A stretch of DNA of 64,000 nucleotides from Alphaproteobacteria bacterium (GTDB taxonomy: Bacteria; Pseudomonadota; Alphaproteobacteria; UBA7985): the NCBI GenBank assembly GCA_965228345.1, contig CBDDHH010000003.1, positions 181,806 through 245,805 on the forward strand, given 5' to 3'. The notes below the pieces were generated by a model, which had not been told where the DNA came from, searched no databases, and was given only the letters and a program-made list of their open reading frames with translations. Shown one piece after another: positions 6,307 to 23,169 of the stretch (its first letter is position 1; the number at the start of each line of letters is the position of its first letter). A program made the translations under genes and the position numbers.

Positions 6307-6310
6307 AGGG

Positions 6311-7333
6311 TTAGACTACCGCCTCTTTCGGCCTTGTCCAGGGCGAAGACACAGCCAGGGTCGGCGAGTCCAGATCGGTGTCCGTCGGTTCAAGAAGTGC
6401 CATGAACCCCCTGGGTGCCGCCGCGGCCGCCGCCAGCCCTTGGCCTGGGTCGGGTCGATTGATATGAGGCGCCGACCGGGTGGAGGGGCGCGGCTGCATG
6501 GCGGCAAAGTCAAAGAGGTCCTGATCGGCCAGATGACTGGGGAAAAGGTGGCTTAGGGCCTTAAAGATGGCTTGCCGACGCCCGGGATAGGTCCTCTCAA
6601 ACTCACTTAGCAGCGTCTTGAAGGCCTGGCGCTGCAAATTGGGTTGCGTCCCGCACAAGTTGCACGGGATGATGGGATAAGCCATGGCGCGGGCAAAGCG
6701 CCCTATGTCGGCTTCCGCGCATGCATAAAGCGGCCGGATCAAGGTGTGCTGGCCCGACAAGGCCGCGAGCTTGGGCGGCATGGCCTTGAGCCGCGCGCCA
6801 AAAAACATATTGAGCAGCAGGGTCTCGATCACATCGTCGCGATGATGACCCAAAGCAATTTTGGTTGCGCCAATTTCGGCGGCCTTGGTATAAATGATAC
6901 CCCGGCGCAGGCGTGAACACAAGGCGCAGGTCGTTTTGCCCGGGGCGGTTTTGGCCTTCACTATGGCGTAAGTGTCCTCACGGTGGCAAAGGTGCGCCAC
7001 CCCAACCTCGGCAAAGTAGGCAGGCAGGGTTTCTTGGGGAAATCCCGGTTGGGCTTGGTCGAGGTTGAAGGCCGTTATGCGAAAATCAAAGGGCTTGCGC
7101 CGTGCTAGGTCCTGCAATATCGTCAGCAAGGTATAGGAATCTTTGCCGCCTGAGCAGCAGATCATGATATGGTCGCCAGGGTCGAGCATGGAAAATTGGT
7201 GCATCGTCGCCTCAACCTGCCGGGTCATGCGACGGCGCAACCGCTCAAACTCCCCTGACTTGCGCGCGCGCGCGTAGGGATCAGGAGGTGTCGGGGCGTC
7301 GCGAGTGGACTCGAGCAGCATCGGCGTGGGCAT
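6311..7333 (-). CDS. ttcA: tRNA 2-thiocytidine biosynthesis protein TtcA (PP-loop ATPase)
   Basis: PP-loop motif CCSGGKDS and Cys pairs (CALC, CNLCG) in the 384-aa ORF 6311..7465. I place the start at the internal ATG 7333 (MPTPMLLEST...), because the upstream 44 codons run into the repeat element. The stop is 4 nt before the Calx-beta ATG. Confidence 0.85.
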   Translation of the reverse strand: MPTPMLLESTRDAPTPPDPYARARKSGEFERLRRRMTRQVEATMHQFSMLDPGDHIMICCSGGKDSYTLLTILQDLARRKPFDFRITAFNLDQAQPGFPQETLPAYFAEVGVAHLCHREDTYAIVKAKTAPGKTTCALCSRLRRGIIYTKAAEIGATKIALGHHRDDVIETLLLNMFFGARLKAMPPKLAALSGQHTLIRPLYACAEADIGRFARAMAYPIIPCNLCGTQPNLQRQAFKTLLSEFERTYPGRRQAIFKALSHLFPSHLADQDLFDFAAMQPRPSTRSAPHINRPDPGQGLAAAAAAPRGFMALLEPTDTDLDSPTLAVSSPWTRPKEAVV

Positions 7334-8350: not shown

Positions 8351-8734
8351 ATGAAAAATCTCTGTGAGCGGCAGGAGAAATTCTGCCAAGCCTTGGTCAG
8401 CGGCATGAGCGCGACCCAGGCTTACATCAAGGCTGGTTATAGCCCCAAGGGCGCCAACACTTGTGCAGCTAAGCTTCGCAAACACCCATATGTCGCGGCG
8501 CGGCTTGCGGCCCTGAGGGCGGAAAATGCCCATGCCAGCCAAGCCGAGCGTCGCGACTTGCTGGCCCATCTTGAGTGGGTCATGGAAGTGGCCAAGGAGC
8601 AGGGGGCTCTGGGCGACATGATCCGCGCCGTGACCCAGTACTCGAAGATGTGCGGCTATGATGCGCCTGCTAAGGTTGAGGCGGATGTGACTGTTCAGCG
8701 GATTGCACGGACCATTGTTGACCCCCGCAAGTGA
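8351..8734 (+). CDS. Terminase small subunit (P27/Terminase_2-like)
   Basis: The N-terminus MKNLCERQEKFCQALVSGMSATQAYIKAGYSPKGANTCAAKLRKHPYVAARL is the typical HTH region of small terminases. It lies immediately upstream of terL and overlaps it. The start was chosen at the internal ATG 8351; the ORF is open from 8303. Confidence 0.65.
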   Translation: MKNLCERQEKFCQALVSGMSATQAYIKAGYSPKGANTCAAKLRKHPYVAARLAALRAENAHASQAERRDLLAHLEWVMEVAKEQGALGDMIRAVTQYSKMCGYDAPAKVEADVTVQRIARTIVDPRK

Positions 8735-10019
8735 GCCTGGGCTCGACATTCAGACGGCTCGGGTTTTTTTGCCTTTGCTGGAGCCTGCTCGCTACAAGGC
8801 CGCTTACGGCGGGCGCGGGTCGGGTAAGTCGCATTTCTTTGGCGAATTGGCGGTTGAAGAGGCCTTGCGGTTTCCTGGCGAGTGCGGTGAGGGCTTGGCC
8901 TTGGTCTGTGTTCGGGAGGTGCAAAAGAGCCTCAAGGATTCAGCCAAGCGGTTGATTGAGGGGAAGATCCGCGCCTTTGGGCTCGGTGAGCCGCAGGGGT
9001 TTAGGGTTTGGAACGACCGCATCGAGTTGCCCAAGGGTGGGCAGATCATCTTTCAAGGGATGCAGGATCACACGGCGGAGTCCGTCAAGTCGCTTGAGGG
9101 GTTTCATCGGGCCTGGGTTGAGGAAGCGCAGACGCTTTCGGTGACTTCGCTGGAGTTGTTGCGGCCGACCATTCGTGCGCCTGGCTCGGAGTTGTGGTTT
9201 AGCTGGAACCCGAGGCGCAAGGCTGACCCCGTGGACGCCATGCTGCGCGGGGAGACTTTGCCGACCGGCGCGGTGGTGGTGCGGGCCAATTGGGACGACA
9301 ACCCTTGGTTCCCCGATACGCTCGACCAGGAGCGCCAAGATTGCTTGCGCGATGCGCCTGAGATGTATGAGCATATCTGGGAAGGGGGTTATGCGACCGT
9401 GCGCTCGGGGGCTTACTATCAGCGTGATGTGGTCAAGGCGCGGCAGGATGGGCGCCTTGGGGTGGTGACGCTGGATCCTTTGCTGCCGATTTATGCCTTT
9501 TGGGACATCGGCGTGTCCGACGCGACCGCCATCGTGGTGGCGCAGTTTGTGGGCTCGGCGCTCAAGGTGCTGGACTATTATGAGGCCACTGGCCAGCCGC
9601 TTTCGGCGCATCTGAATTGGTTGCGGCAAGCGGGCTATGGGGCGGCCAAGTGTTACTTGCCCCACGACGCTGATCAGCGCGACAAGGTGACGGCCATTCG
9701 GTTTGAGGACCATGTGCGCGCGGCGGGCTTTGCGGTGCAGACCGTGGCCAATCAGGGCAAGGGCGCGGCTTTGAAGCGGGTTGAGACCGCGCGGCGGCTG
9801 TGGCCGTCGATTTGGATCGATGAAGGCAAGGCGGGCGGGCTGATCGACGCCTTGGCCTGGTACCATGAGCGCTGGGACGACAATCGCAACATTGGCCTGG
9901 GGCCGAACCACGATTGGGCCAGCCATGGGGCCGATGCCTTTGGCCTCATGTGCGTGGCGCACGAACCGCCCAAGAGTGGGCGCAGGATTAAGCAAAGGGA
10001 GGTGCCTGTAATCGTATGA
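8703..10019 (+). CDS. Terminase large subunit (PBSX family)
   Basis: Walker A motif YGGRGSGKSHFF about 40 aa from the N-terminus; 438 aa; ATGA overlap with the portal gene. The start codon is uncertain (TTG 8703 or a nearby TTG). Confidence 0.85.
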   Translation: MHGPLLTPASEPGLDIQTARVFLPLLEPARYKAAYGGRGSGKSHFFGELAVEEALRFPGECGEGLALVCVREVQKSLKDSAKRLIEGKIRAFGLGEPQGFRVWNDRIELPKGGQIIFQGMQDHTAESVKSLEGFHRAWVEEAQTLSVTSLELLRPTIRAPGSELWFSWNPRRKADPVDAMLRGETLPTGAVVVRANWDDNPWFPDTLDQERQDCLRDAPEMYEHIWEGGYATVRSGAYYQRDVVKARQDGRLGVVTLDPLLPIYAFWDIGVSDATAIVVAQFVGSALKVLDYYEATGQPLSAHLNWLRQAGYGAAKCYLPHDADQRDKVTAIRFEDHVRAAGFAVQTVANQGKGAALKRVETARRLWPSIWIDEGKAGGLIDALAWYHERWDDNRNIGLGPNHDWASHGADAFGLMCVAHEPPKSGRRIKQREVPVIV

Positions 10020-12517
10020 GTGACATCGACCTAAGCGACGACGTGCAGCTTGCCAGCCATGTGGCGCAGTTGATTGACGGGTGTGAGAAGCATGCCGACG
10101 ATCAGGAGAAGTCGCGCCAGCCGGCGCTGGAGTACTATGACGGTATCATGACCGATACGCCCTTTGAGGCGGGGCGGACGGGGGTTGTGTCGCACGATTT
10201 GCGCGCGGCCATTAAGAAGATCATGCCGACGATCATGCGCACCTTGCTGTCGGGCGATAAGATCGTGGAGTTTGAGCCGGCGGGGCCTGGGCCTGACAAG
10301 GAACTACAAGCCCAGCAAGCGACCGACTATATGAACCATGTGGTTGTGCCCGAAGCGGGCGTTGAGGGGGCGCTTTATGACGCCATTTTTGACGCGCTGG
10401 TCGTCAAGACGGGCATTTTGAAGTGGCGGGCTTACAATCGGCGCGAAGCGACGGTCCAGCAGTACACGAGCCAGAGCGACGCGCAGTTGCTGGGGCTGGG
10501 GGGTGAGGACGGCGTTGAGATTGCCGACCTCGTGAGCGAGCCCGAGACCGACGCCGTGGCCCTGGCCGAGAATCCTGCGGCCATGCGCCATAGTTTCACT
10601 TTGCGGCGGGTGGTCGATCAGGTGGACGTGCGCCTTGAGGCCCTCCCGCGCGGGTCGTTCCTGATCCATCCCACCGCCGATAGCATCGAGGAGAGCCCGA
10701 TTGTTGGGGAGCGGCAGGTTGTCACGCGCTCCGAGTTGGTCAGCCGTGGCTACGACCGCGATTTGGTGGCGAGTTTGGCGGCCTATGCGGGCCGTGACCA
10801 TGAAGAGAGCGACAACCTGGCGCGCAAGGGTGAGGACTGGTCCGACGAGCGGATGCAGACGGCGGCGGCCATGGAAGAGGTCTTGCTCCACGAGGTCTAT
10901 GTGCGGCTTGACTTGGACGGCGACGGCATAGCGGAGTTGCACAAGGTGTGCCTGGCCGAAGGGTCGAGCGAAGAAGGCGCGGGACCTGTGGTGCTGGACC
11001 GCGAGCCTGTTGCTGAGGCGCCCTATGCCAAGGTGATCGCTGAACGCGAGGCGCATCAGTTTGAAGGGCGCTCGCTGGCCGAGGACGTGGTGCCGATTCA
11101 GAAGATCAAGACGGGGTTGGTGCGGCAAACGCTGGATAATTTGGTTTGGGCCAACAATCCGACGCCCGTGGTCGATGGCGGGGCTTTGACGACGCAGGGC
11201 ATTGAGGCCATGCAGAACCCGTCGTTTGGCAAGATCGTTGAGGCCGAGGCGGGGCGGGCCAAGGATGCGGTGCAGTTTTTGACCGTGCCCTTTGTCGGTG
11301 AGAAGTCCTTTGGCATGTTGCAGTACCTGGACGAAGAATTGCGCGAACGCACGGGCGTCACCGACCAGTCGGGCGGGCTGGATCCCGAAGCGTTTCAGAA
11401 CATGACCGCGACCTCGGTGCAGTTGATGGCCGAGAGCGGCATTGCCCAGGCGGAGATGATCGTGCGCTCGCTGAGCCGTGGGATTCGCAAGGCTTTCAAG
11501 GGCTTATTGCGGCTGGTTATTGCGCATTCTGACCGTGAGCGGGCGGTTCGGCTGCGCGGCGAGTGGATCGACTACGACCCCAGGCACTGGGATGTCGATA
11601 TGGACTGTGTGGTCAATGTCGGACTTGGCGCAGGATCGAAGGAGCGGGATCTGGCGGTTTTGCAAATGGTCCATGGGTTGCAGGAGAAGCTGCTGGCGGC
11701 TTTCGGACCTGACAACCCCTATGTGAAGCCCGAGCAGGTCTTTAACGTTTTGGACAAGATCACGGAGACGGCGGGCTTTCCCGATGTGAAGCCCTACTTC
11801 ACGCGGCCTGACCCGCAGGAAGTGCAGGCGCGGCTCCAGGCCGAAGCGCAGAAGCCGAGCGAGCATGATGAGAAGGTGCAGCTTGAGCAGATGAAGGCCC
11901 AAGCCAAGGCGCAGGCGGACATGGCTAAGGCCGAGATTGAGGCGCGGTTCAAGCGCATGGAGATGGACCATCAGATTCAGCTGGAGCGGATCAAGGCCGA
12001 ACAGCAGGCTGCCGCCGCTGCGGCCAAAGAAGAAGCGCAGGCGCGGTGGAACAGCAAAGAGCAGGAATTTAAGGCGCAGCTGGACGCCGCGACTGCTGAA
12101 CGCGACCTGGCCTTGAAACGCGAACAGATGGCGGCCGATACGGCCCTAAGGCGCGAGCAGATCGCCGCCGACGAGCGGCAGAACGCGCTCAACCAATCGG
12201 TGAAGATGCGGATCGAAGCGGCCAAGCTACCGCCCGAGATGCAAGGCGGGCTTGGGGGCTTTGCCGATCAGTTGGATGCCAGCGTGAACGCTCGGCCGAT
12301 TTTGAGCGATATAGCGGCGATTAAGGACAGTTTAGCGGCGATCACGGAGGCCTTGACCAGGGCCGAGACCGAAAAGGCCGCGCCGAGGCAGATCCTGCGC
12401 GACGAAGCGGGTCAGATCATCGGGGCGCAAGTGGTGATGCCCGATGGGACGACCATCGTCAAAGAATTGCAGCGCGATGAACACGGCAACGCCGTTGGGT
12501 CGCGGGTTCTCCACTAG
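10016..12517 (+). CDS. Portal protein (P22 gp1-like) with a long C-terminal coiled-coil extension
   Basis: 833 aa, directly after terL. The N-terminal region (ALEYYDG...GRTGVVSHDLRAAIKKIMPTIMRTLL) is portal-like. The last ~230 aa are A/E/K/Q-rich heptad-like sequence. Confidence 0.75.
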   Translation: MSDIDLSDDVQLASHVAQLIDGCEKHADDQEKSRQPALEYYDGIMTDTPFEAGRTGVVSHDLRAAIKKIMPTIMRTLLSGDKIVEFEPAGPGPDKELQAQQATDYMNHVVVPEAGVEGALYDAIFDALVVKTGILKWRAYNRREATVQQYTSQSDAQLLGLGGEDGVEIADLVSEPETDAVALAENPAAMRHSFTLRRVVDQVDVRLEALPRGSFLIHPTADSIEESPIVGERQVVTRSELVSRGYDRDLVASLAAYAGRDHEESDNLARKGEDWSDERMQTAAAMEEVLLHEVYVRLDLDGDGIAELHKVCLAEGSSEEGAGPVVLDREPVAEAPYAKVIAEREAHQFEGRSLAEDVVPIQKIKTGLVRQTLDNLVWANNPTPVVDGGALTTQGIEAMQNPSFGKIVEAEAGRAKDAVQFLTVPFVGEKSFGMLQYLDEELRERTGVTDQSGGLDPEAFQNMTATSVQLMAESGIAQAEMIVRSLSRGIRKAFKGLLRLVIAHSDRERAVRLRGEWIDYDPRHWDVDMDCVVNVGLGAGSKERDLAVLQMVHGLQEKLLAAFGPDNPYVKPEQVFNVLDKITETAGFPDVKPYFTRPDPQEVQARLQAEAQKPSEHDEKVQLEQMKAQAKAQADMAKAEIEARFKRMEMDHQIQLERIKAEQQAAAAAAKEEAQARWNSKEQEFKAQLDAATAERDLALKREQMAADTALRREQIAADERQNALNQSVKMRIEAAKLPPEMQGGLGGFADQLDASVNARPILSDIAAIKDSLAAITEALTRAETEKAAPRQILRDEAGQIIGAQVVMPDGTTIVKELQRDEHGNAVGSRVLH

Positions 12518-12542
12518 GGGCTGAACGAGGGCAGGCAGAGCC

Positions 12543-12824
12543 ATGGCAACAAAGAACACGGTCGCGCCTGCGGTCAAGACGGGCGACATCATCCAATACA
12601 ACGGCGACAATGTCACGAACATCACCGAGGACAACAGCCTTGTTTATCCGATTTATTTTTCTGTGAGTGCCGGGCCTGCCCCGACGCCAACCGAGGAAGA
12701 GCCCGAGGTGGCAGAGCCTGGCGATGAGGACTCAGACCTGCCCGCCTATCTGCAAGCGACCCTAGAGATCACGGAAACCGCCGAGATCACTGAAATCACC
12801 GAAGTCGAAGAAATCCAAGTTTAG
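12543..12824 (+). CDS. Hypothetical acidic phage protein with EIT(E) micro-repeats
   Basis: 93-aa ORF, co-oriented with its neighbours. C-terminus ATLEITETAEITEITEVEEIQV. Confidence 0.4.
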   Translation: MATKNTVAPAVKTGDIIQYNGDNVTNITEDNSLVYPIYFSVSAGPAPTPTEEEPEVAEPGDEDSDLPAYLQATLEITETAEITEITEVEEIQV

Positions 12825-12839
12825 AAAAGAGGAGAAGTC

Positions 12840-13817
12840 ATGGCCTTTACATCGCGCAAGACGCAAATCGAAGAAGCAATCATTCAGGTCAACGCGCAAA
12901 TGACCGCGATCACGGGCGCGACAAGCGGGCCGCTATCGAGCGACCAAGCCGCCGCCTACGAGCGCCTCAGGGTGACGCATAGCCACTATATCGACCTTCA
13001 CGTCACCGAGGAAGAAAAAGAGGCCGCTGCCGCCGCACAAGCCGCCTATGATGCCATCGATTCAACTGCGGTCTGGACTAAGACTTATGGCGCGGTCGTG
13101 GGTGTCTTTTCAGCCTATCACGGCTATTCAGGTACGGGCGCAACGTCGCAAGTTGGCACCAACCAAAGCGAACAGGCCAGCCACCGCTTTCTAACCATGG
13201 CGGCTTGTGGTGAGGCGTGGGCCGATGAGGATTTATCGTCCAAGCTCAACTTCCAATACACGCAAATGGAAACCAATTGGTTCACGGTGGATCGGCCCTT
13301 CTGGTATTTGGGCGAAGGCTACAACGAGGACGACCAAAGCAGCAGCACCTACACCTATCCGCGCCGCCCGCACTCGTTCGTGCCGCTACGCAATTCGACC
13401 GATGCCGATATTGTGCTAAACGTGGTTTATGAGGCCAGCAGCTATTCCAGCAATTATTCGAATATGGGGTTCAATACGTGGACGCCCGACCTTACGAACA
13501 CCGAATTAGCGACCCATAGCGGCGATGTGGCGGTGACGTTTCAGAACGTCTTTCAATACTCCAGCAACACAGCCCGTCGCGCCTCAAATCAGAATATCAC
13601 CATCCCTGCGGGCAAGTCGATCATCCTGCATTACTGGTCATCTGGCAAGTATCATGCGGATGTGACCAATCACTACACCATGAACTACGTCCACGGGCTC
13701 GACATATCGGCGATTGAGACCATCGATGGGCTTGAGTGCGACAAGCAGATCATGACCAACTTCGGCAAGAATTACAAAAAGGTGGGCAGTTTGTTCCTGC
13801 CCGAGCCTACTGAATAA
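12840..13817 (+). CDS. Hypothetical protein; helical N-terminus and a Ser/Tyr/Asn/Thr-rich C-terminal domain
   Basis: 325-aa ORF with GAGGAG 6 nt upstream of the ATG. Its composition clearly differs from the neighbouring phage ORFs. Confidence 0.5.
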   Translation: MAFTSRKTQIEEAIIQVNAQMTAITGATSGPLSSDQAAAYERLRVTHSHYIDLHVTEEEKEAAAAAQAAYDAIDSTAVWTKTYGAVVGVFSAYHGYSGTGATSQVGTNQSEQASHRFLTMAACGEAWADEDLSSKLNFQYTQMETNWFTVDRPFWYLGEGYNEDDQSSSTYTYPRRPHSFVPLRNSTDADIVLNVVYEASSYSSNYSNMGFNTWTPDLTNTELATHSGDVAVTFQNVFQYSSNTARRASNQNITIPAGKSIILHYWSSGKYHADVTNHYTMNYVHGLDISAIETIDGLECDKQIMTNFGKNYKKVGSLFLPEPTE

Positions 13818-13828
13818 GGAGCCTCCCC

Positions 13829-14083
13829 ATGAGTGACAAAAAAGCAACAGTGCCGACGCGGTGGATTGAGTTTGACGCGCAAGGCAACCAGGCGGGCGTC
13901 GGGATTGATCGCGTTCCTGGGACTTATGAGGCCCCTGCGGGCTATGACCCTGCTGCGGACTTTGCGCGGCTGGTTGACGGCAAGGTGGTCCTGGAGCCGA
14001 ATTGGACGGCGGAGCAGTACGAGGCGCACGAAGAAACCAAGCGCCTAGAGCGGATTGCCAAAGCGGCCAAAGAGGCCGCCTAA
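13829..14083 (+). CDS. Hypothetical phage protein
   Basis: 84-aa ORF with GGAG upstream, in the co-oriented block. Confidence 0.4.
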   Translation: MSDKKATVPTRWIEFDAQGNQAGVGIDRVPGTYEAPAGYDPAADFARLVDGKVVLEPNWTAEQYEAHEETKRLERIAKAAKEAA

Positions 14084-14091
14084 GCTAGGCC

Positions 14092-14631
14092 ATGGCGACT
14101 TATGACGTCACCCTGACGCTGGACAAGTCCGAGATCGGCAAGACGGTCACGGCCCAGCTCTTGCTTGCCGACGCTGACGAAGCGGCGATTGAGGTGACGG
14201 GCTTCACGGCTATGTCGGCGGCGGGGCGCTATGGGGCCAACCTGCCCAGCGACCTAGCGGCGGGCGAGTACCAGATACTTTACTACGCCGACGACGTGTT
14301 CAGGGTTGATGACACCTTGACCTGGGACGGGTCTGCTATCGTTGAAGGCGGCGGCGAGCCCGTCACTCTGGCCGATGCGTCGGTCGATGCGATTGTCGAG
14401 GCCGTTGAGCGCGATGAAGGGCTTGTGAAGGGGTTGGATGCCAAGGTTGAGGCCTTGCCCGACGCTGACGCCACCGCTGAGGCTGTTTGGACCAAAGAGA
14501 CGCGCACCGTTACGGGCACCCAAGACGACGCGGCTTTGCCCGCCAATGTCAAGTATATCAATGACATAGGCGTCGGTGGGTCGGGCGTTGAGGGCGATAC
14601 TTGGGGGCCGGCGCCTAGCGAAAGCGCTTAA
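14092..14631 (+). CDS. Hypothetical phage structural protein
   Basis: 179-aa ORF, tightly packed. No family recognised. Confidence 0.45.
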   Translation: MATYDVTLTLDKSEIGKTVTAQLLLADADEAAIEVTGFTAMSAAGRYGANLPSDLAAGEYQILYYADDVFRVDDTLTWDGSAIVEGGGEPVTLADASVDAIVEAVERDEGLVKGLDAKVEALPDADATAEAVWTKETRTVTGTQDDAALPANVKYINDIGVGGSGVEGDTWGPAPSESA

Positions 14632-14634
14632 GCC

Positions 14635-15141
14635 GTGACGGCGGTTGTTGACGCCTTCGGCGGGGCCTTTGGCGCGGCTTTTGGGCCTGCCTTTGGCTGG
14701 TCGATCGACGAGCCCGAGACCGCCACCAAGCCGACCCATAGCGGGCGCGTTTGGGTTGGTGGGCAGTGGGAGGACGAGGACGATGACCCGCTGGCCACCA
14801 TCGAGGATGCGCTCGACTATCTGAACCGCAAGCCCAAGCTGACCAAGGCGGCGCGGGCCAAGATCAAGGCCAAGATCGAAGCGGCGCGCAAGGTGGCGGA
14901 GAAAGCCGCCGCCGAACAAGCGGCCCAGCAAGCGCGCATGACGGCGCAGGCGGCCCGTGAGAGTGCCGCAAGCGCCTTGCTGCGGGATCTGCCGCCTTTG
15001 CCCGATTTGGACGCGCAGCGGGTGAGTTTGGTGCGCTTGCGGGCTTGGTTTGTCGAGTTACGGGCGCGGATCAGCGCTTTTGAAGATCACAAGCGCGCCG
15101 AGGACGAGGCTGCCATATTTTTGCTGCTGATGGATGACTAG
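14635..15141 (+). CDS. Hypothetical phage protein
   Basis: 168-aa ORF with a GTG start, 3 nt after the preceding stop. Confidence 0.4.
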   Translation: MTAVVDAFGGAFGAAFGPAFGWSIDEPETATKPTHSGRVWVGGQWEDEDDDPLATIEDALDYLNRKPKLTKAARAKIKAKIEAARKVAEKAAAEQAAQQARMTAQAARESAASALLRDLPPLPDLDAQRVSLVRLRAWFVELRARISAFEDHKRAEDEAAIFLLLMDD

Positions 15142-15370
15142 ACTTAGCCAAGGGGAGGCGCTGGCCCTCCTGCACAATACCACGCTCATGGCGCTCCTGG
15201 ACCAGATGGAGGCCGATGCGCTGAACCTGGCCGTGAACGCCAGTGCCGATGAAGATTCCCGCCGTTTGGTCGCCTGCACGCGCGCCAAGGCGTTTCGAGA
15301 TTTGAGACGGAAGTTGACGACCCTTTCCGAGGGCAAGACCAATCCCGCCTCAGATACGCGCGACGGATAG
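15134..15370 (+). CDS. Hypothetical phage protein
   Basis: 78-aa ORF overlapping the previous ORF by 8 nt. Confidence 0.4.
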   Translation: MTRLSQGEALALLHNTTLMALLDQMEADALNLAVNASADEDSRRLVACTRAKAFRDLRRKLTTLSEGKTNPASDTRDG

Positions 15371-15408
15371 CCGTCCCGCGTTACCAACCTTTCACAAAGG
15401 ATTGAGAC

Positions 15409-16335
15409 ATGACCCTAGACCCTGAAACGGGCGAGGCTATGGACGATCAAGACTTAGGTCTTGAGGACTTTGCAGACTTGCCCGACGAAGCGGACACGCC
15501 CGACGAAGAGCAACCCGAAGAGGACGAAGGCGCCGATTTGGCGGCGGATCAAGACGATCAGCCAGAGGCCGATGAAGACGACCCCGACGCGGACTTGAGC
15601 GAAGGCGACAAGGTGCTGGTCACTTTGAGCGACGGCGATCAAGTCAAGCTGGAAGAACTGAAGGCAGGCTATTTCCGTCAAAAGGACTATACGCACAAAA
15701 CTGAGGAACTGGCGCGCGAGCGCGAGCAGATCGGTGAGATCCGCAAGGCTTACGACCAGCAGACTCAAGCCCTCCAAGCCGCGCAAAATGGACTTGCGCA
15801 CTATATGCAGGGGCTTGTTCCTCCCGAACCCGATCTATCCCTGGCCCAGACCAACCCTGGGCAGTACCAATACCAGCAAGCCATGCGTCAACAGGCCATG
15901 GTCGAGTTGCAACGGGTACTCCAAGCCAGTCAACAGACGCAGGCGCAAGCCACGCAGGCCGACGCGGCCGAGCTGGCCCGCTACAAGTCCGACGAGGAAG
16001 CACGGCTGATCCAAGCCATGCCAAGCCTCAAGGACCCTGGGCGGCGCAGCAAATTCCACGCGGATGTGCGGCAAGCGGCCTTGGACTTTGGCTTTAGCGA
16101 GGCAGAGATCGACACGACCCTTGACCACCGCATCCTGCGGCTGGTGCATTTTGCCCGCCACGGCAAGCAAGCCTTGGACAACCGATCCAGGGCCGCGCGT
16201 CGTGCTGGCGAGAAGCCAAGCAAGGGCAAGCGGGCACCCGGGACGGCAGCAGCCCCCCAGGCGCGCAGCAAGGCCATGGAGCGCCTCACTAAATCTGGCG
16301 ACATTGAGGACGCGGTTGCCGCGATGCTCAACTAG
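15409..16335 (+). CDS. Putative scaffolding protein
   Basis: 308 aa, immediately upstream of the capsid gene. Extremely acidic N-terminus (D/E/P-rich), Q/A-rich helical middle, basic C-terminus. Confidence 0.5.
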   Translation: MTLDPETGEAMDDQDLGLEDFADLPDEADTPDEEQPEEDEGADLAADQDDQPEADEDDPDADLSEGDKVLVTLSDGDQVKLEELKAGYFRQKDYTHKTEELAREREQIGEIRKAYDQQTQALQAAQNGLAHYMQGLVPPEPDLSLAQTNPGQYQYQQAMRQQAMVELQRVLQASQQTQAQATQADAAELARYKSDEEARLIQAMPSLKDPGRRSKFHADVRQAALDFGFSEAEIDTTLDHRILRLVHFARHGKQALDNRSRAARRAGEKPSKGKRAPGTAAAPQARSKAMERLTKSGDIEDAVAAMLN

Positions 16336-16364
16336 CCACTCTCTAACCTCGAAAGGGTAAAACT

Positions 16365-17354
16365 ATGGCTGTTTCAACAGGAGCCTTTAAGACCGGTTCA
16401 GCGAAAGTGAACCGCGAAGAACTCGCCAACGTCGTCGATGCCGTCCAACGGTCGGACACGCCGATCTATTCCATGATCGCCAATTCCACGGCCAAGTCGG
16501 TCTTTCCTGAATGGCCTGTGCGGGACTTCGATGCCCCCGCGCAGAACATCCAGTCAGAAGGGCGCGACTATGCCTTTGAGTCGGACAATCCGTCAAAGCG
16601 CATGGGCAACCATACGCAGATCTTCGCCAAGAACGGCAAGTTCACCAACACCCAAGAAACGGTCGATAATGCCGCCAAGTCCGAACAGATGGCGCGCGAC
16701 AAGATCGAAAAGGGTTTGGCCTTGCGCACCGATGTGGAATTTTCCATCGTCACGAACAACGCCTCCCTCGGCGGCGATGATCGTGTGTCGGGGTCTCTAT
16801 CGACCTGGGCCGAGACCAACGTCTCACGCGGGGCAGGCGGGGCCAATGGTGGCTACAGCGAGACCACCAAGGTCACGACCGCGCCGACCGACGGAACGCA
16901 GCGGGCCTTGAGCAAGGACCTGATCGACGATCTGCTGCAAGCGGGCTATTCGTCGGGCGCCAAGCTGACGCATATGTTCTTTAGCCCCTACGGCAAGCGG
17001 GTCTTTGCCAGCCTGATGGAAGACCCTGGCGTTGCGCAGTTCCGCTACGCGGCCAAGGGCGGCAAGAATACCATCGTTGCCACGGCAGAGATTTACCTCG
17101 GCCCCCTCGGGCAAGTCACGGTGCATCCCAACCACGTCATGGGCGCCAGCGCCACGCAAGCGCGCAACGCCTTTGTGCTGGATACCAAGCGGGTCAAGTG
17201 GAAGTGGCTGCGCGCCATCTACGAGGACAAGGACCTGGCCAAGACGGGGGACTATCGGCAGTTCGTCCTGCAAGGCGAAGGCTGCCTGTGCGTTGAGAAC
17301 GAAAAGGCGGTCGGGGTGATCGCGGATATCTATGGGCTGACGGCGACGACCTAA
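16365..17354 (+). CDS. Major capsid protein (HK97-fold, SU10/DUF5309-like by recollection)
   Basis: 329 aa, follows the scaffold gene, and is followed by a strong terminator. The family call rests on recalled sequence character only. Confidence 0.65.
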   Translation: MAVSTGAFKTGSAKVNREELANVVDAVQRSDTPIYSMIANSTAKSVFPEWPVRDFDAPAQNIQSEGRDYAFESDNPSKRMGNHTQIFAKNGKFTNTQETVDNAAKSEQMARDKIEKGLALRTDVEFSIVTNNASLGGDDRVSGSLSTWAETNVSRGAGGANGGYSETTKVTTAPTDGTQRALSKDLIDDLLQAGYSSGAKLTHMFFSPYGKRVFASLMEDPGVAQFRYAAKGGKNTIVATAEIYLGPLGQVTVHPNHVMGASATQARNAFVLDTKRVKWKWLRAIYEDKDLAKTGDYRQFVLQGEGCLCVENEKAVGVIADIYGLTATT

Positions 17355-17373
17355 GAGGCTGACCAACTGGGAA

Positions 17374-17397
17374 GGGGGCTTAGCGGCCCCCTTTTTT
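17374..17397 (+). terminator. Rho-independent terminator after the capsid gene
   Basis: GGGGGC-ttagcg-GCCCCC followed by TTTTTT. Confidence 0.8.
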
Positions 17398-17495
17398 GTA
17401 ACATTTGCACTTGGGGCTTGAAATATGAGGGTCGTATCCTTAGTGAAAGAGGTCCGTGAGGGGTTTGGACTTTCTTTGAGTTGAGGTGATGACGG

Positions 17496-18050
17496 GTGTT
17501 TGACTTAGCCAAGGCTGCCCACATGGTCGCGTTTTTTGCGCTCAAAGCGGGTCGAAATATCAACCTTATGAAGGTCGTCAAACTGGTTTACCTTGCAGAT
17601 CGGGAAAGCGTGAAGCGGATTGGTGCGCCCCTCTTACACGACGCGCGAGTCTCCATGCCGCACGGACCTGTTAACAGTGGCGTTTTGGACGCCGTGAATG
17701 GCGCCTATGACGATCCAAGATGGCGATCAGTGCTAAGGGATCGAGCCCATCATTACATTGGTGTTCAGCCAGGCATCCGCGAAGATGATCTTGATGAGCT
17801 GTCCGACTACGATGTTGAGGTCATGGAGGCGGTTTGGCAAGAGTTTGGCGCTATGGATCAGTGGGAGCTTAGCGATTGGACCCATAACAGCAACAACGTT
17901 CCTGAATGGACGAGCCCAGGTGGGGGCGCGCAACCCATCCCAATGCAGAAATTTTTTGAAGGCGTTGGCTGTGAGGACCCAGAAGGAGCGTCCGCGACTT
18001 ATCTTGCTTCCGAGGCTTATCTTAAGTTTATTCACCCGACCCACGTGTGA
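17496..18050 (+). CDS. Panacea-domain (DUF4065, SocA/GepA-like) antitoxin PanA
   Basis: The N-terminus VFDLAKAAHMVAFFALKAGRNINLMKVVKLVYLADRES...MPHGPV matches the DUF4065 pattern (x-hKLqKLlYhad...., GPV). GTG start with GAGGTG upstream. 4-nt GTGA overlap with the next ORF. Confidence 0.75.
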   Translation: MFDLAKAAHMVAFFALKAGRNINLMKVVKLVYLADRESVKRIGAPLLHDARVSMPHGPVNSGVLDAVNGAYDDPRWRSVLRDRAHHYIGVQPGIREDDLDELSDYDVEVMEAVWQEFGAMDQWELSDWTHNSNNVPEWTSPGGGAQPIPMQKFFEGVGCEDPEGASATYLASEAYLKFIHPTHV

Positions 18051-18436
18051 TCCAACCCAAACAGGTTTACTACCTGGAGACGCTGCTTTCAGGTCGCCCA
18101 GGTCATACGCGCTCGCACTATACCGTGGTTGTTTTTGTTGAGGATGATCGCGCGCTTCTTGTTCCCATATGTAGCAAGCGGCCTCATGCCTACGACCCCA
18201 CGGTGGAGCTAGGCCCAAACGAATACCCACGGCTCCGCCATGCGTCGTTTGTCGAGTATAGCAAGGCCGACTTTATAAGCTTAGGGCATTTGTCGGAACA
18301 AATTGCAGCAGGCCTCGCGCGGCCTTGCGAAACCTTAAATGCGCAAGTGTTCTTGCGGATCAAGAACGGGCTTCTAAACTCGACCTACACGAAGAGAAAA
18401 ATCAAAAATTGGGTCAAGGGTCGCGCGGCCGAATAG
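18047..18436 (+). CDS. Candidate toxin partner of PanA (unknown family; weak MazF/PemK-like N-terminal pattern)
   Basis: 129-aa ORF translationally coupled to PanA (GTGA). QVYYLE...GHTRSHYTVVVFVEDDRALLVPICSK resembles the beta-barrel core and the vPxTS motif of PemK-like toxins, but the match is not secure. Followed by a terminator. Confidence 0.5.
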   Translation: MIQPKQVYYLETLLSGRPGHTRSHYTVVVFVEDDRALLVPICSKRPHAYDPTVELGPNEYPRLRHASFVEYSKADFISLGHLSEQIAAGLARPCETLNAQVFLRIKNGLLNSTYTKRKIKNWVKGRAAE

Positions 18437-18500
18437 GGCCAGGCTTGGCCGTCGCGCGAACTTTCGAATTCTATCCGCTGACAAGCTAGACCGAAACTTG

Positions 18501-18522
18501 AGGGGCCAATGGCCCCTTTTTT
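18501..18522 (+). terminator. Rho-independent terminator after the PanA/partner pair
   Basis: AGGGGCC-aat-GGCCCCT followed by TTTTT. Confidence 0.75.
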
Positions 18523-18546
18523 ATTGCTGAGTCTTGGGGGGGTGGG

Positions 18547-19647
18547 ATGTTGAAAATTGACTCGCCCATGCTGGCGAATCCCCATACGCCGCTTGACGTG
18601 GTTGATTTCGTTGAGCCGAAGCACTCAAAGGCCCGTGTTCGCCTTGCTGGCGACGTTCTCAAGCAAGCTCATGACCAAGTCAGCGACGAGTTGACCGACG
18701 CTTTCTCTGTCGCCTATGCCTGGCGTGACGCTCATGCCCTGCCTATGTCCGCCATGTTGAGCGAGTTGCGGGGCCTTGTTCGTCGTGGCGGTGGCGTAGG
18801 CTATTGCGCGGCACGACTTAAGCGCATGGCGTCGATACGGCCCAAGCTGGCGCGGTTCAAATTGCGGCTGGCAGACATGCAAGACTTGGCAGGCGCGCGG
18901 GCAATCTTGCCCTCGATCAGCGATGTCGAGCGCGTTTCTGCGCTGCTGGAAAGTGCGCGGTTTGGTCCGTCAAAGCCCGCAGTTGACTATATGGCGGCCC
19001 CAAAAGCGGACGGCTATAGGAGCGTCCACCGCGTCTTGAAGATGGAGGGCCACGGAGAGCGAGCGCCTTGGGGCGGCATGAAGGTGGAGGTGCAGGTAAG
19101 GACGCGGCTGCAACACGCATGGGCGACGGCGGTTGAAGCGCACGACATGATGAGCGGCGAGACCAGCCTGAAGGGCGGCCAAGGCGACGATAGTTGGCGG
19201 CGGTTTTTTGCACTTATGTCGGGCGAGATTGCCGAAGTTGAAAGCGCACCGCTTCCCGCCAGTGTGCCGGAAAACAGATCGGAGCGCCGAGAGGAATTGG
19301 CGCACCTGAACCGCGAGATTGACGCCCTTAGGGTGCTAGAAAGTTACCGCCTAGCGGCGGATGCGGCGGACGCGCGCCCTGATGCTCGCTATTTCTTGCT
19401 GATGCTGGACACGCGCCGAAAGACTGTCAAAATAAGATCCTTCTACGGCATCCTGGACGGCGGCGACGCATACAACCAAAGAGAGGCGAGCGCGACTAGC
19501 ACGGTATTGGTTGAATCGGGCGACGCGAAGAACCTAGCGGCGGCCTATCCAAACTACTTTTTAGACATTCGTGCTTTTGTTGGTCAGGTTCGCGTCTCGC
19601 TGGGCGGCCATGACTTGTCCTGGCTTAGTGAATACGGGCGCTGTTAG
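18547..19647 (+). CDS. RelA/SpoT-domain nucleotide pyrophosphokinase (small alarmone synthetase / toxSAS-like) with a ~160-aa C-terminal extension
   Basis: All synthetase motifs are present: RLKRMASIRPK (RxKxxxSxxxK), DLAGARAI (DxxGxR), DGYRSVH, and VEVQVRTRLQHAWATAVEAHD (ExQxRTxxQHxWA). These span aa 90-200, which is nt 18814-19146. Confidence 0.8.
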   Translation: MLKIDSPMLANPHTPLDVVDFVEPKHSKARVRLAGDVLKQAHDQVSDELTDAFSVAYAWRDAHALPMSAMLSELRGLVRRGGGVGYCAARLKRMASIRPKLARFKLRLADMQDLAGARAILPSISDVERVSALLESARFGPSKPAVDYMAAPKADGYRSVHRVLKMEGHGERAPWGGMKVEVQVRTRLQHAWATAVEAHDMMSGETSLKGGQGDDSWRRFFALMSGEIAEVESAPLPASVPENRSERREELAHLNREIDALRVLESYRLAADAADARPDARYFLLMLDTRRKTVKIRSFYGILDGGDAYNQREASATSTVLVESGDAKNLAAAYPNYFLDIRAFVGQVRVSLGGHDLSWLSEYGRC

Positions 19648-19664
19648 GCATCGCCGTGTTTTTT

Positions 19665-19700
19665 GGCCCGTAACTTTTCGGAAACAGGCCCGTAACTTTT
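19665..19700 (+). promoter_or_regulatory. Two direct copies of GGCCCGTAACTTTT with a 22-bp period, upstream of the resumed phage genes
   Basis: Copies at 19665-19678 and 19687-19700, about 35 nt upstream of ATG 19734 (RBS GAAAGGAA). Confidence 0.3.
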
Positions 19701-19733
19701 TTGATTTCCCCAAAAAAAACGAAAGGAATCCCC

Positions 19734-20024
19734 ATGACAAAGGATGAACTAGAAGCTCTGGGCCGTGAGCATGGCTTGGAATTGGACAAGCGCAAGTCGG
19801 TTGCCAAGTTGCGCGAGGAGTTGGCTGCGGCGGGCGTTGAGGTGCCTGCGGAGGCGGCTGAGGCCGCTGAGCCTGGTGCGGCTGAACCTGGCGTTGATGT
19901 TGAGATTTTGCGCGACGTTTGGGACGCAGGCGGGGTTCGGCAGCGGCGGGGGTCGGTGGTGGCGGTTTCTACCGATACGGCCCTTGAGTGGCTCGAAAAG
20001 GGCCTGGCTAAGCGCGCCGCATGA
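19734..20024 (+). CDS. Hypothetical phage protein (helix-extended-helix, Rho-N/SAP-like N-terminus)
   Basis: MTKDELEALGREHGLELDKRKSVAKLREELAAAG. The start is taken at the internal ATG with an RBS; the ORF is open from 19701. Confidence 0.5.
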   Translation: MTKDELEALGREHGLELDKRKSVAKLREELAAAGVEVPAEAAEAAEPGAAEPGVDVEILRDVWDAGGVRQRRGSVVAVSTDTALEWLEKGLAKRAA

Positions 20025-20362
20025 TTGGGCAACGCGACAGCGCGGGCTGGCAGTGTGTGGGCTTTAACCCGCAAAGCCAAGTGTCCACCTGGATCAAGCC
20101 CGATGGCGACGAGGATATGTTGATCGAAGAACGTCAAGAGATTGGCGCCATCCTCGATCACAACACCGCTGCCCGCAATGTGGCTGAGGCGGGCTGGAAA
20201 GGCGACGGGCTGCACCGCGTTGCCGCCATTCCCATGGCCATGGCCCATGAGCGGGATAGCTTTCTACACGGGGCCTTGCAGGCCCAGGACGCCAAGGCCC
20301 TTGCGGGCGTGTTGAACGATAGCGACTTTGCCAAGCTGCGCACCAAGGAAGGCGCCATCTAG
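20021..20362 (+). CDS. Hypothetical phage protein
   Basis: 113-aa ORF with a 4-nt overlap on the upstream ORF. Confidence 0.45.
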   Translation: MIGQRDSAGWQCVGFNPQSQVSTWIKPDGDEDMLIEERQEIGAILDHNTAARNVAEAGWKGDGLHRVAAIPMAMAHERDSFLHGALQAQDAKALAGVLNDSDFAKLRTKEGAI

Positions 20363-20934
20363 TGATCCAGGACTATGCGGCCCTAATCGCCGAGGTGACG
20401 CTTCGGTCGGGCGTTTCGGATGTTGCGACCCGCGCGGGCCTGTATGTTGGCATGGCCGAGAACGCCCTTTCTAAGCGGCTGCGCGTTGGCGACATGGAGA
20501 CCGAAGCGACCTTGACCACCGACGAGGACGGGCGCGCGGACTTGCCGGCGGACTTTTTAGAAGTGCGGTCGCTACGCACGGCGGACCAGGCTTTGCCGCA
20601 ACGGACCTTGCGAGCCGTTCAGGACGGGGCGGTCTGTGGCTATGCGCTGACGGGCAAGGCTTTGGTGACGAACGAGAAGGAAACGGACCTTGAATTGGTC
20701 TATTACGCCGCTTTGCCTGGCCTAGAAGCGCATGACACCAACTGGCTGCTGGAGCAGGATCCTGAGGTCTATTTGAGCGCGGTGCTGTTTCAGGTCTTTA
20801 TCGCCAATTCCAACCTTGAGGGCGCGCAGGCGGTGACGGGGCTGTTGACGGGGCAGATCGAGGCGCTGAACCGCGACGACTATCGCAAGCGCCATGCAGG
20901 GGCGCGGGTGAATGTGGCGGGGCTTACGCCATGA
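20362..20934 (+). CDS. Phage virion protein (head-tail adaptor or tail-tubular-like, unassigned)
   Basis: 190 aa, overlapping its neighbours. Shares the ..DLP.DF..... pattern with the next ORF, suggesting the two are paralogues. Confidence 0.45.
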   Translation: MIQDYAALIAEVTLRSGVSDVATRAGLYVGMAENALSKRLRVGDMETEATLTTDEDGRADLPADFLEVRSLRTADQALPQRTLRAVQDGAVCGYALTGKALVTNEKETDLELVYYAALPGLEAHDTNWLLEQDPEVYLSAVLFQVFIANSNLEGAQAVTGLLTGQIEALNRDDYRKRHAGARVNVAGLTP

Positions 20935-21533
20935 GTGCTGAGGATGTTTTGAGTCATGTCTTGCTGGCCGTTGGGCTGGATCGGCCTGGGGCGCAGTTGA
21001 CGGCGGGGGACTTTGAGATTGACCAGATCAAAGCCTTTATGAACGAAGCGGGAACGGACATCGCGCGGCGGGCGCAGTGGTCGGGCTTGTTTAAGACGCA
21101 CACCATCGAAGGCGAAGTGTCGGCGGTGGATTTGCCCGAGGATTTTTATCAGATGGCGCAGAATGGGGCGGTGCGGCTGAATAAGGAGGGGTTTTACCCT
21201 GTTTTGCCCGTGCTGGTACCTGAGCAGTGGGCTTTCTTGTCGGCGCGGCCTTCGGCGCAAGCGCACTATCACCTTTCGCAAGGGCAGCTGTTGTTTTCGC
21301 CTGCGCTCGATGAAGATGGGGCGGTCATGGTGTACCTGTCGAGCTGGTGGGTCGAGGGCAAGGGGGCGATTAGCCAGAATAGCGACGAGATCCTGATCCC
21401 CGAACGCCTGGTCGAAAAGGGCACGGTTTGGCGGTGGAAGCGGCAAAAGGGCATGACCTACGATGATTTGCTCGCCGAATTTGAAGCCGACCTTGAGGCC
21501 GAACTGAACGCGGATCGAGGCGCGAGTGCTTAG
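20931..21533 (+). CDS. Phage virion protein (possible paralogue of the preceding ORF)
   Basis: 200 aa with an ATGA overlap. VDLPEDFYQMAQNGAVRL compares with ADLPADFLEVRSLR in the previous ORF. Confidence 0.45.
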   Translation: MSAEDVLSHVLLAVGLDRPGAQLTAGDFEIDQIKAFMNEAGTDIARRAQWSGLFKTHTIEGEVSAVDLPEDFYQMAQNGAVRLNKEGFYPVLPVLVPEQWAFLSARPSAQAHYHLSQGQLLFSPALDEDGAVMVYLSSWWVEGKGAISQNSDEILIPERLVEKGTVWRWKRQKGMTYDDLLAEFEADLEAELNADRGASA

Positions 21534-23169
21534 GATTGCGCCATCGCGGGCGCGGCCCAGCAATCGCACCCCGACAGAATCCGACAAGACCCCCGCCGCC
21601 AAGGCCAAGTCCTACGGCGCTCCAACCGCTGGACTTGTGACCAATCTCCCCCTGGCGGCGGGGATGCCCGCCTCGGCCATTGAGCTTGATAACTTCTGGC
21701 CGACCAGCACGGGCCTTGAGCCGCGCGGGGGCAGCGCCTTGGTCGCCACCATCGAGGGGCCGGTCGAAACGCTGTTCCAGTATCAGGCGGGTGCGCTTGA
21801 GGTGTTCTTTGCCGCCGATGCGGGCAACATCTATGCCTTTGACGGCGACACCTCGGGCGGGGCGGAGTTGTCGCCGGTGGTGACGGGGCAGACCTCGGGC
21901 GATTACTGCGATTTGCATATTCAGAACCAGGGCGGCTCGTTCTTATGCCTTGTGAATGGCGCGGACCCCATGCAGCTTTACGACGGGGCCAGTTGGCAGC
22001 AGGTGACCGATAGTAGCAGCCCCCATGCCATTACGGGCGTTGATACGTCCACCTTGTCCTACACTTGGGCCTATCGCAATCGGCAGTTCTTCATCCAATC
22101 GGGGACCATGAACGCCTGGTATTTGGGCGTGAACTCGGTTTCGGGCATTGCCACGATCTTACCCCTTGCGGGCGTGTTCAACCGTGGCGGGTCGCTGCTG
22201 TTTGGGGCGACCTGGTCCTCCGACAGTGGGGCGGGCATGGACGACCGTTGCGTTTTTGCAACAGATCAGGGCGAGTTTGCCGTTTATGAGGGCGACCCCT
22301 CGGACCTCAGCACCTGGTCTTTGACGGGGGTCTATACGATCGGCAAGCCGCTGGGCAAGCGGGCGCATATGACTGTCGGCGGTGACTTGATCGTTGCGAC
22401 GCACGATGGTCTGATCCCCATATCGGCGGCGACGAGTAAGGACCCCTCGCAACTGACTTTGAGTGCGCTCAGCATCAAGATCGAAGGGAACTGGCGCAAC
22501 GCGGCCCTTGGGACCTATGGCGGCAAGACTTGGGCGCTGGCCAAGTGGTCGGCCAAGAACATGGCGCTTGTTCTGCCGCCGATCGATGGCGACGTCTATT
22601 GCTGGGCCGTGAACCTGACCACGGGGGCCTGGACCAAGTTTTCAGGCTGGGCGGCGGCGACCGTGGCCGTGCTGGGCGACGGGCTTTACTACGGCGGCAG
22701 CGACGGCGCCTTGGTCGCGTGTGACGTTGGCGGCAGCGATCAGGGCAGCCCCTTTGAGTGCCGGGCTTGCTTCGCCTTTGACCATTTGGAGGCCCCTGGG
22801 GCGCTGAAAGTCGCGCACCTGATCCGCTCTAAATGGCGGCGCGGCCATACCTTTGCCAGCAAGCACAGCATCGCGAGCGACTATCGGCCCAATTTCCCGA
22901 CTTTGCCCGCCGCGGCCATCCCCGAGCCGACGACGGCGAGCGACTGGGATGAGGCGATTTGGGATGAAGCCTATTGGAACGATGATCGCGGCGGCTTTTG
23001 GAGCGCCTCGGGGGACTGGGATATAGCGGAAAAGTGGGAAAGCATTTCGGGCCACGGCGAAGTCTTGGCCCCGCAAGTGCAAGTCATCTCAGCGCAGGAT
23101 GTGAAGCTTGCTTGTGAGCTCATCTCCCTCGATCTGACCTACACGGTTGGGGCCGTGCCCCATGGCTAG
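21526..23169 (+). CDS. Large phage tail or nozzle-type structural protein (unassigned)
   Basis: 547 aa with a GTG start overlapping the upstream stop. Gly/Trp/Ser-rich, beta-type sequence. Confidence 0.5.
   Translation: MLRIAPSRARPSNRTPTESDKTPAAKAKSYGAPTAGLVTNLPLAAGMPASAIELDNFWPTSTGLEPRGGSALVATIEGPVETLFQYQAGALEVFFAADAGNIYAFDGDTSGGAELSPVVTGQTSGDYCDLHIQNQGGSFLCLVNGADPMQLYDGASWQQVTDSSSPHAITGVDTSTLSYTWAYRNRQFFIQSGTMNAWYLGVNSVSGIATILPLAGVFNRGGSLLFGATWSSDSGAGMDDRCVFATDQGEFAVYEGDPSDLSTWSLTGVYTIGKPLGKRAHMTVGGDLIVATHDGLIPISAATSKDPSQLTLSALSIKIEGNWRNAALGTYGGKTWALAKWSAKNMALVLPPIDGDVYCWAVNLTTGAWTKFSGWAAATVAVLGDGLYYGGSDGALVACDVGGSDQGSPFECRACFAFDHLEAPGALKVAHLIRSKWRRGHTFASKHSIASDYRPNFPTLPAAAIPEPTTASDWDEAIWDEAYWNDDRGGFWSASGDWDIAEKWESISGHGEVLAPQVQVISAQDVKLACELISLDLTYTVGAVPHG

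Follow-up and report, generated by a model that had tools for sequence, protein, structure and literature searches.

We analysed a stretch of 64,000 nucleotides (nt) from an Alphaproteobacteria bacterium (assembly GCA_965228345.1, contig CBDDHH010000003.1), which as a whole is called the window below, and describe here a gene pair, panA and panT, that it carries within a prophage. The pair belongs, as a divergent branch carried by a phage, to a family of PanAT toxin-antitoxin systems that is already known; it is neither the founder of a new family nor a SocB-like system, and is very probably a PanAT module with a MazF-fold toxin of the type of T6, one of the 88 clusters of PanT toxins defined by Kurata et al. 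2022 (PNAS 119:e2102212119, PMC8832971). The features of the locus itself are the following:

17496-18050, + strand: panA, 184 amino acids (aa), GTG start; stand-alone Panacea domain (DUF4065), matched by PF13274 and phrog_1281
18047-18436, + strand: panT, 129 aa, GTG start; predicted MazF/PemK/Kid fold, probable divergent member of PanT cluster T6
17483-17489, + strand: Shine-Dalgarno-like GAGGTGA directly 5' of the panA GTG start, as read from the sequence

The two open reading frames (ORFs) have the four bases GTGA in common (18047-18050; junction -4), which hold the panA stop and the panT start, and this arrangement suggests translational coupling. A preliminary description of the locus, made from the letters alone, had given the same overlap and the same ORF sizes, and the coordinates bear it out exactly; the peptide that it quoted, YTVVVFVEDDRALLVPICSK, is located at residues 25-44 of panT. 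The pair is conserved in two metagenomic contigs, where the panT relatives are 86% and 61% identical to that of the window (word-indexed search), and in the related loci L001 and L002 the panT relative stands directly after a Panacea gene, with the GTGA overlap kept. When the window is compared with the L001 copy, the ratio of nonsynonymous to synonymous substitution rates (dN/dS) is 0.26 for panT and 0.23 for panA, indicating that both genes are under purifying selection and, together with the conservation of the pair, that both are real. This bears on the reading of the pair as a decayed or non-toxic remnant, or as a chance overlap of ORFs. Such a reading could draw on the eight PanTs that were non-toxic in E. 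coli (PMC8832971) and on the lack, in the clade of the window's panT, of the GDHPF motif that is common in the family; we consider it very unlikely, given the dN/dS values, the GTGA overlap kept in L001 and L002, and the fact that three independent contigs carry panA and panT at full length, none of the near-invariant residues of the family having been lost.

The assignment of the first ORF to the Panacea (DUF4065) antitoxins, already made in the preliminary description, is secure: PF13274 (SocA_Panacea) matches residues 28-132 with E 3.2e-19 and 70.4 bits (cut-off 25.7). A Pfam scan found no other domain in panA, including any N-terminal helix-turn-helix, the Panacea domain beginning at residue 28, and the PHROGs match, phrog_1281, is annotated as of 'unknown function'. 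Residues 135-184 form a C-terminal extension in which a PEW..P.GS..PI motif precedes an acidic helical tail, and both this extension and the N-terminus are conserved across 90 PanAs that partner the PanT family described below; these partner PanAs make up a coherent subfamily of about 185 aa. We note that four PanA ORFs paired with T6 toxins are unusually long (290-430 aa, against the usual 185), namely L114 6602-7894, L050 3213-4100, L068 6635-7558 and L117 1535-2407; they may carry extra N-terminal domains, or may be over-extended by naive ORF calling.

The partner is far harder to recognise by sequence. No Pfam, NCBIfam or PADLOC model matches panT, PDB sequence searches returned only noise, both with a profile of close relatives and with one of 119 members, and none of the 119 aligned family members has a Pfam match. 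Among phage sequences, tblastn of panT against 50,697 sequenced phages gave no match, and no close relatives were found in IMG/VR; the one PHROGs match, phrog_19071 (E 4e-10), is again of 'unknown function'. The word-indexed search recovered only 3 proteins with panT as the single query, and only 7 with the 119-sequence profile. Few close relatives, the absence of Pfam, NCBIfam, PADLOC or PDB sequence matches and the absence from sequenced phages would all suit a panT that founds a new PanT family, as the preliminary description had proposed, with a fold or target not yet known. The family looked far rarer than it is because the word-indexed search recovered so little of it, and an exhaustive search put this right: with a hidden Markov model (HMM) seeded with three close sequences of the window clade and run over 1.84 billion representative proteins, 389 relatives were found at E ≤ 1e-3, nearly all of 120-140 aa. 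At a threshold of 50% identity the family thus falls into approximately 389 clusters, which represent many phyla. In the family alignment (window numbering), H24 is invariant, D50, S67, Y71, G108 and S112 are near-invariant, and S43 is conserved.

The genomic neighbourhood of the family was examined by means of a degenerate DNA motif that encodes the protein pattern D.T..L..G[DE]H.F[ILV]...S...Y. A scan of the species-representative genomes of GTDB gave at least 120 matches to this motif, which the window's own panT does not match. The listed matches, the window and loci L001-L005 made up 126 sequences, 123 of which carry a family member as judged by HMM. The listed loci come from Acidobacteriota, Verrucomicrobiota, Gemmatimonadota, Latescibacterota, Chloroflexota, Planctomycetota, Cyanobacteria and Fibrobacter, as well as from alpha-, beta- and gammaproteobacteria. 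In 114 of the 123, the gene directly 5' of the toxin gene, and in the same orientation, is PanA-like, the gap between the two being -4 to +10 nt in most cases, and the Panacea domain was confirmed with Pfam in all five partners sampled; among the remaining nine loci, eight are without a PanA ORF (at least some at the edge of the fetched DNA) and one has PanA 245 nt upstream. The neighbourhood analysis of homologues that had been suggested earlier therefore places PanA directly next to the toxin almost throughout the listed loci. Clustering of neighbouring ORFs over the 123 loci yielded no conserved third gene: the largest clusters are antisense shadow ORFs of panA and panT, and real clusters occur in at most 4 of the loci. 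In IMG/VR, a scan with the same motif gave 25 contigs, 24 with a called family ORF and 20 with a panA-panT pair. Three of the listed loci carry homologous Fic proteins of approximately 390-407 aa on the same strand downstream of a T6-type panT (L001 1621-2844, L065 6110-7309, L125 5117-6280), and these could be either a recurrent accessory gene or a defence-island neighbour.

The family defined in this way coincides with a published one. Kurata et al., using FlaGs, required of a PanAT system two genes no more than 100 nt apart, kept in at least two species and not part of a longer conserved operon (PMC8832971); the pair studied here has a Panacea domain, a gap within 100 nt, presence in at least two species and no conserved third gene. 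In their Dataset S1, the Pseudomonas moraviensis pair (PanA WP_083354365.1, PanT WP_083201923.1) belongs to cluster T6 (PMC8832971), and the T6 rows include Halomonas stevensii S18214 (A|T, -4), Salinivibrio socompensis S35 (A|T, +1) and Halomonas utahensis (A|T, -4) (PMC8832971). Each of these is met again among our loci with the same order and gap: L066 is Vreelandella (Halomonas) stevensii S18214 with an overlap of -4, L043 is S. socompensis S35 with a gap of +1, and L061 is V. utahensis with an overlap of -4. The recovered family is thus T6, since the three loci match the rows of Dataset S1 in both respects.

That the window's panT belongs to this family was tested in a non-circular manner, with an HMM of 100 genome-derived members, all recovered by the DNA motif that the window does not match. 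This model hit panT over residues 12-126 with 73.9 bits (E 1e-15 at Z = 1.8e9), and BLASTP of panT gave E 8e-8 against the H. stevensii S18214 toxin (L066) and E 3e-6 against that of S. socompensis S35 (L043). The likeness to T6 PanAT systems extends to the organisation of the locus: a stand-alone Panacea antitoxin of approximately 185 aa without an N-terminal domain, the antitoxin gene first, a junction of the same type (-4, -1 or +1 in T6; -4 in the window), and a toxin of approximately 130 aa that is annotated as 'hypothetical protein', has no CDD or Pfam hit and is predicted to have an EndoA/PemK/MazF-like structure. It differs from the sampled T6 members in that its panT is a divergent branch and is prophage-borne, within a module of structural genes. 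With hundreds of relatives, a near-constant pairing with PanA, a clear MazF-like fold and the coincidence with T6, we regard the proposal of a new PanT family as refuted, and give it almost no credence. Indeed, profile searches place the protein in a family that is known and is still a toxin-antitoxin system, an outcome that the preliminary description had foreseen as one that would remove the novelty.

Functional data come from published PanTs. Those of P. moraviensis and B. ruminantium are without a CDD hit and were found by HHpred to be like the EndoA/PemK/MazF RNases (PMC8832971); both are toxic, are neutralised by their cognate PanA and specifically inhibit 35S-Met incorporation (PMC8832971). 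Within T6, it is for the P. moraviensis pair that growth inhibition by the toxin and its neutralisation by PanA in a complex are documented.

A structural model agrees with this assignment. The AlphaFold2 prediction of panT on the 119-member alignment has a mean predicted local distance difference test (pLDDT) score of 95.8 and a predicted template modelling (pTM) score of 0.87, and a Foldseek search of the PDB with this model returned MazF, PemK, Kid, EndoA or MoxT in all of the top 50 matches (prob 1.00; template modelling (TM) score 0.52-0.70 over approximately 117-125 columns). Among viral structures (BFVD), the best matches are a 'PemK-like protein' and an 'Endoribonuclease'. An earlier model built on 3 sequences was discarded (pLDDT 64); its best Foldseek match was also MazF, at an insignificant E 0.1 and TM 0.33. 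The predicted fold of panT is thus that of the MazF/PemK/Kid-type SH3-like barrels. The structure prediction and search that the preliminary description had recommended give the 129-aa protein a MazF/Kid fold, and the 'faint MazF/PemK-like pattern' that it had perceived in panT is real at the level of the fold, because the model is of high confidence and its top 50 PDB matches are all of the MazF type. Its statement that the toxin family could not be recognised holds insofar as no Pfam, NCBIfam or PADLOC profile matches, and falls insofar as both the fold and the published cluster have now been identified.

In comparison with the MazF/PemK/Kid/EndoA proteins of PF02452 (PDB 4MDX, 5CR2, 1M1F, 4HKE), modelled panT has the same barrel and C-terminal helix and the same size. 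It differs in having no significant PF02452 match, in having an extra C-terminal helix with a G108/S112/T115 motif, in the probable replacement of the catalytic Arg and Thr by His24 and Ser43, each no more than one position away in a weak alignment, and in its antitoxin, which is a Panacea protein and not MazE, PemI or Kis (AbrB or ribbon-helix-helix type). By analogy, a role as a toxin that inhibits translation would be common to both. In E. coli MazF (EcMazF), the catalytic residues are Arg R29 and Thr T52. An hhalign comparison with a small alignment of MazF, Kid, EndoA and ChpBK sequences puts H24 in the column that precedes R29 and S43 in the column that follows T52, at a probability of only 35%.

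These residues leave room for a toxin with the shared fold and a different activity, a gyrase poison like CcdB or a protein with some other binding mechanism, and no RNase. CcdB has the same fold as MazF, the family has His and Ser for the canonical Arg and Thr, and the register of the alignment is uncertain by one position; moreover, the HHpred list for a related PanT cluster includes CcdB at a lower rank (PMC8832971). We nevertheless regard this as improbable. No CcdB chain occurs among the top 50 PDB matches of the model, all of which are of the MazF/Kid/EndoA type, the invariant His and the conserved Ser, Asp and Tyr would fit a catalytic site, and it is translation, not thymidine incorporation, that is specifically blocked by the validated T6 toxin (PMC8832971).

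The fold speaks against the suggestion, made in the preliminary description, that panT could be a SocB-like toxin directed at the replication clamp. A SocB-like identity was rejected: besides the MazF-like fold, no SocB-type model matches, and the SocA equivalog NF047745 scores 14.7 bits on panA against a cut-off of 190 bits. SocAB of Caulobacter crescentus, a type VI toxin-antitoxin system that is PanT cluster T10, has the SocA/Panacea antitoxin domain in common with the present pair, and differs in its toxin, that of the window being MazF-like. SocA acts as a ClpXP adaptor for the degradation of SocB, a role that the shared domain does not imply here.

Several observations weigh against the assignment of panT to T6 as a MazF-type toxin. 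As regards canonical MazF, the similarity in sequence is weak: PF02452 (PemK_toxin) matches neither panT nor its 119 relatives, the hhalign comparison described above is colinear but has a probability of only 35% (E 4e-4), and where MazF has its catalytic Arg the PanT family does not keep an Arg. At the level of the cluster, identity between the window clade and the sampled core T6 members is no higher than 23-32%, and at residues 58-62 this clade, with L001 and L002, has (N/S)(E/D)Y(P/A)R in place of the frequent GDHPF. In the window these residues are N-E-Y-P-R, with Y60 and R62 for the usual His and Phe, and H24, D50, S67, Y71, G108 and S112 are kept; activity or specificity could thus differ from that of core T6, given the low identity and the altered motif. 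Membership in T6, furthermore, would follow from the genomes that cluster together in the published table, and not from the P. moraviensis sequence itself; the published N-terminus of the P. moraviensis PanA, MIFSEQKVAQ, when back-translated, gave no match in the genome scan. Finally, several PanTs showed no toxicity in E. coli, among them one with a MazF-like annotation (PMC8832971).

With these points weighed, we propose that panA and panT form a two-gene type II PanAT toxin-antitoxin module that is carried as a moron of an SU10-like prophage. Free PanT would arrest growth by inhibiting translation, as suggested by the P. moraviensis PanAT system and by the fold, most likely through cleavage of mRNA or tRNA as an endoribonuclease that does not depend on the ribosome, with His24 and Ser43 used where MazF uses Arg and Thr; we hold this RNase mechanism, drawn from analogy and from the model, to be somewhat better than an even chance. 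PanA would neutralise PanT by direct binding, through its Panacea domain, its acidic C-terminal extension or both, and the gene overlap would couple the synthesis of the two proteins. Direct neutralisation of toxins by Panacea domains that stand alone was shown by Ernits et al. 2023 (PMC10440598), as was the ability of C-terminal add-ons such as Phd-C to neutralise linearly (PMC10440598); the acidic extension of PanA could act in either mode.

The setting of the pair is that of a prophage, in agreement with the phage-derived element of the preliminary description, as confirmed by the SU10-type capsid and adaptor, terminase, portal and scaffold genes. An SU10-like structural module spans 8703-23169 of the window and includes a 547-aa protein matched by phrog_5107 ('amidase', E 7e-159). 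The following features flank the pair:

8703-10019: large terminase, upstream of the pair
10016-12517: portal, 833 aa, upstream of the pair
15409-16335: scaffold, upstream of the pair
16365-17354: SU10-type major capsid protein, upstream of the pair
17372-17399, + strand: intrinsic terminator after the capsid gene, AAGGGGGC, 6 nt, GCCCCCTT, then TTTTGT; perfect 8-bp inverted repeat
18500-18528, + strand: intrinsic terminator after panT, GAGGGGCC, AAT, GGCCCCTT, then TTTTATT; 8 pairs, 6 of them G-C
18547-19647, + strand: RelA/SpoT-family gene, 366 aa, next after the panT terminator
20362-20934: SU10-type adaptor, downstream of the pair

Between the capsid and adaptor genes the GC content drops from about 0.60-0.65 to 0.52-0.54, and since the terminators at 17372-17399 and 18500-18528 lie on either side of it, the pair is a transcription unit of its own within a moron island. 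A consensus sigma-70 scan upstream of panA found no promoter; one is presumed to lie within 17400-17480. Scans of the 64-kb window for tRNA genes and Rfam families gave neither.

The RelA/SpoT-family product matches PF04607 (E 3e-17) and, end to end, the single-gene PADLOC candidate PDC-S33 (E 3e-91), and its best PDB match is the fused toxSAS CapRelSJ46, a phage-defence protein (7ZTB, E 1e-22, residues 23-267). It has the same overall length as CapRelSJ46, and its gene is a separate transcription unit that is replaced in related elements. As a putative CapRel-like capsid sensor it is of some interest, for approximately 1.2 kb separates its gene from that of the major capsid protein of the same prophage.

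Comparison with L001 shows how the region varies. The window and L001 are homologous at the nucleotide level from 16962 to 18439; the homology ends just past the panT stop and just upstream of the panT terminator, and restarts at 19711. The pair of L001 is likewise placed between capsid and adaptor genes, with a 407-aa Fic protein in place of the RelA/SpoT-family gene, so that 18440-19710 of the window is exchanged for L001 1488-2960 between flanks that are 86-88% identical; in L002, which is a contig from TARA Oceans, the gene after the pair is one for a tape-measure protein. As the homology breaks off just after the panT stop, the third gene is best seen as an independent, swappable cassette. 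L001 has in addition an insertion of approximately 2.1 kb after the adaptor gene (4206-6334), with an AAA_16 ATPase and small ORFs, and the hairpin at 18501-18527 of the window recurs with 96% identity at the end of this insertion (6300-6326), a recurrence that suggests that the hairpin marks cassette boundaries. The capsid-adaptor interval looks like a hotspot of cassette swapping.

The same data bear on a three-gene system, in which PanA would also, or instead, neutralise the RelA/SpoT-family toxSAS at 18547-19647 and panT would be an accessory. Both toxSAS (including the CapRel type) and Fic/Doc are classes of toxin known to be neutralised by PanA (PMC8832971), and one of each occurs as the third gene, a toxSAS in the window and Fic in L001, with Fic near the pair in 3 of the 123 listed loci. 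A strong terminator, however, separates panT from the RelA/SpoT-family gene, the homology with L001 stops at 18439, as expected of a third gene that is an independent cassette, and L002, L003 and more than 100 other loci have the pair but neither of these genes; the neighbour, moreover, matches a single-gene system over its whole length, and the PDB entry most like it, CapRelSJ46, is a fused protein that neutralises itself. A three-gene system is thus hard to credit, and the two-gene PanAT module is the reading retained here.

The role of this module in the prophage is a matter of speculation: stabilisation of the prophage, defence by abortive infection, or both, would be in keeping with the position of the pair in a variable slot for defence genes, beside a CapRel-like gene. 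The window clade consists of four known sequences, at least three of which lie within phage structural modules. A more ambitious picture, to which we would attach only a slim chance, is that this clade has diverged functionally from T6, with a different RNA target recognised through Tyr60 and Arg62, that its PanA senses proteins of infecting phages, and that the pair and the swappable CapRel-like or Fic cassette together form a capsid-adjacent hotspot of defence against superinfection.

The partnership of PanA with a cryptic toxin of the MazF fold has been on record since 2022, when one member was also validated, and in this respect the finding is largely ordinary. The lack of a Pfam, NCBIfam or PADLOC model for T6 toxins is a gap in annotation, and not a biological novelty; because no such model exists, annotation pipelines and even a careful human reader see these toxins as orphans, and a T6 profile would be easy to build, since the family is large (approximately 389 clusters) and almost always linked to PanA. 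The invariant His at the place of the MazF catalytic Arg points to a possible variation in mechanism within the family, and the copy described here, in the capsid-adaptor slot beside a CapRel-like gene, provides an example of defence or addiction genes embedded in a structural operon.

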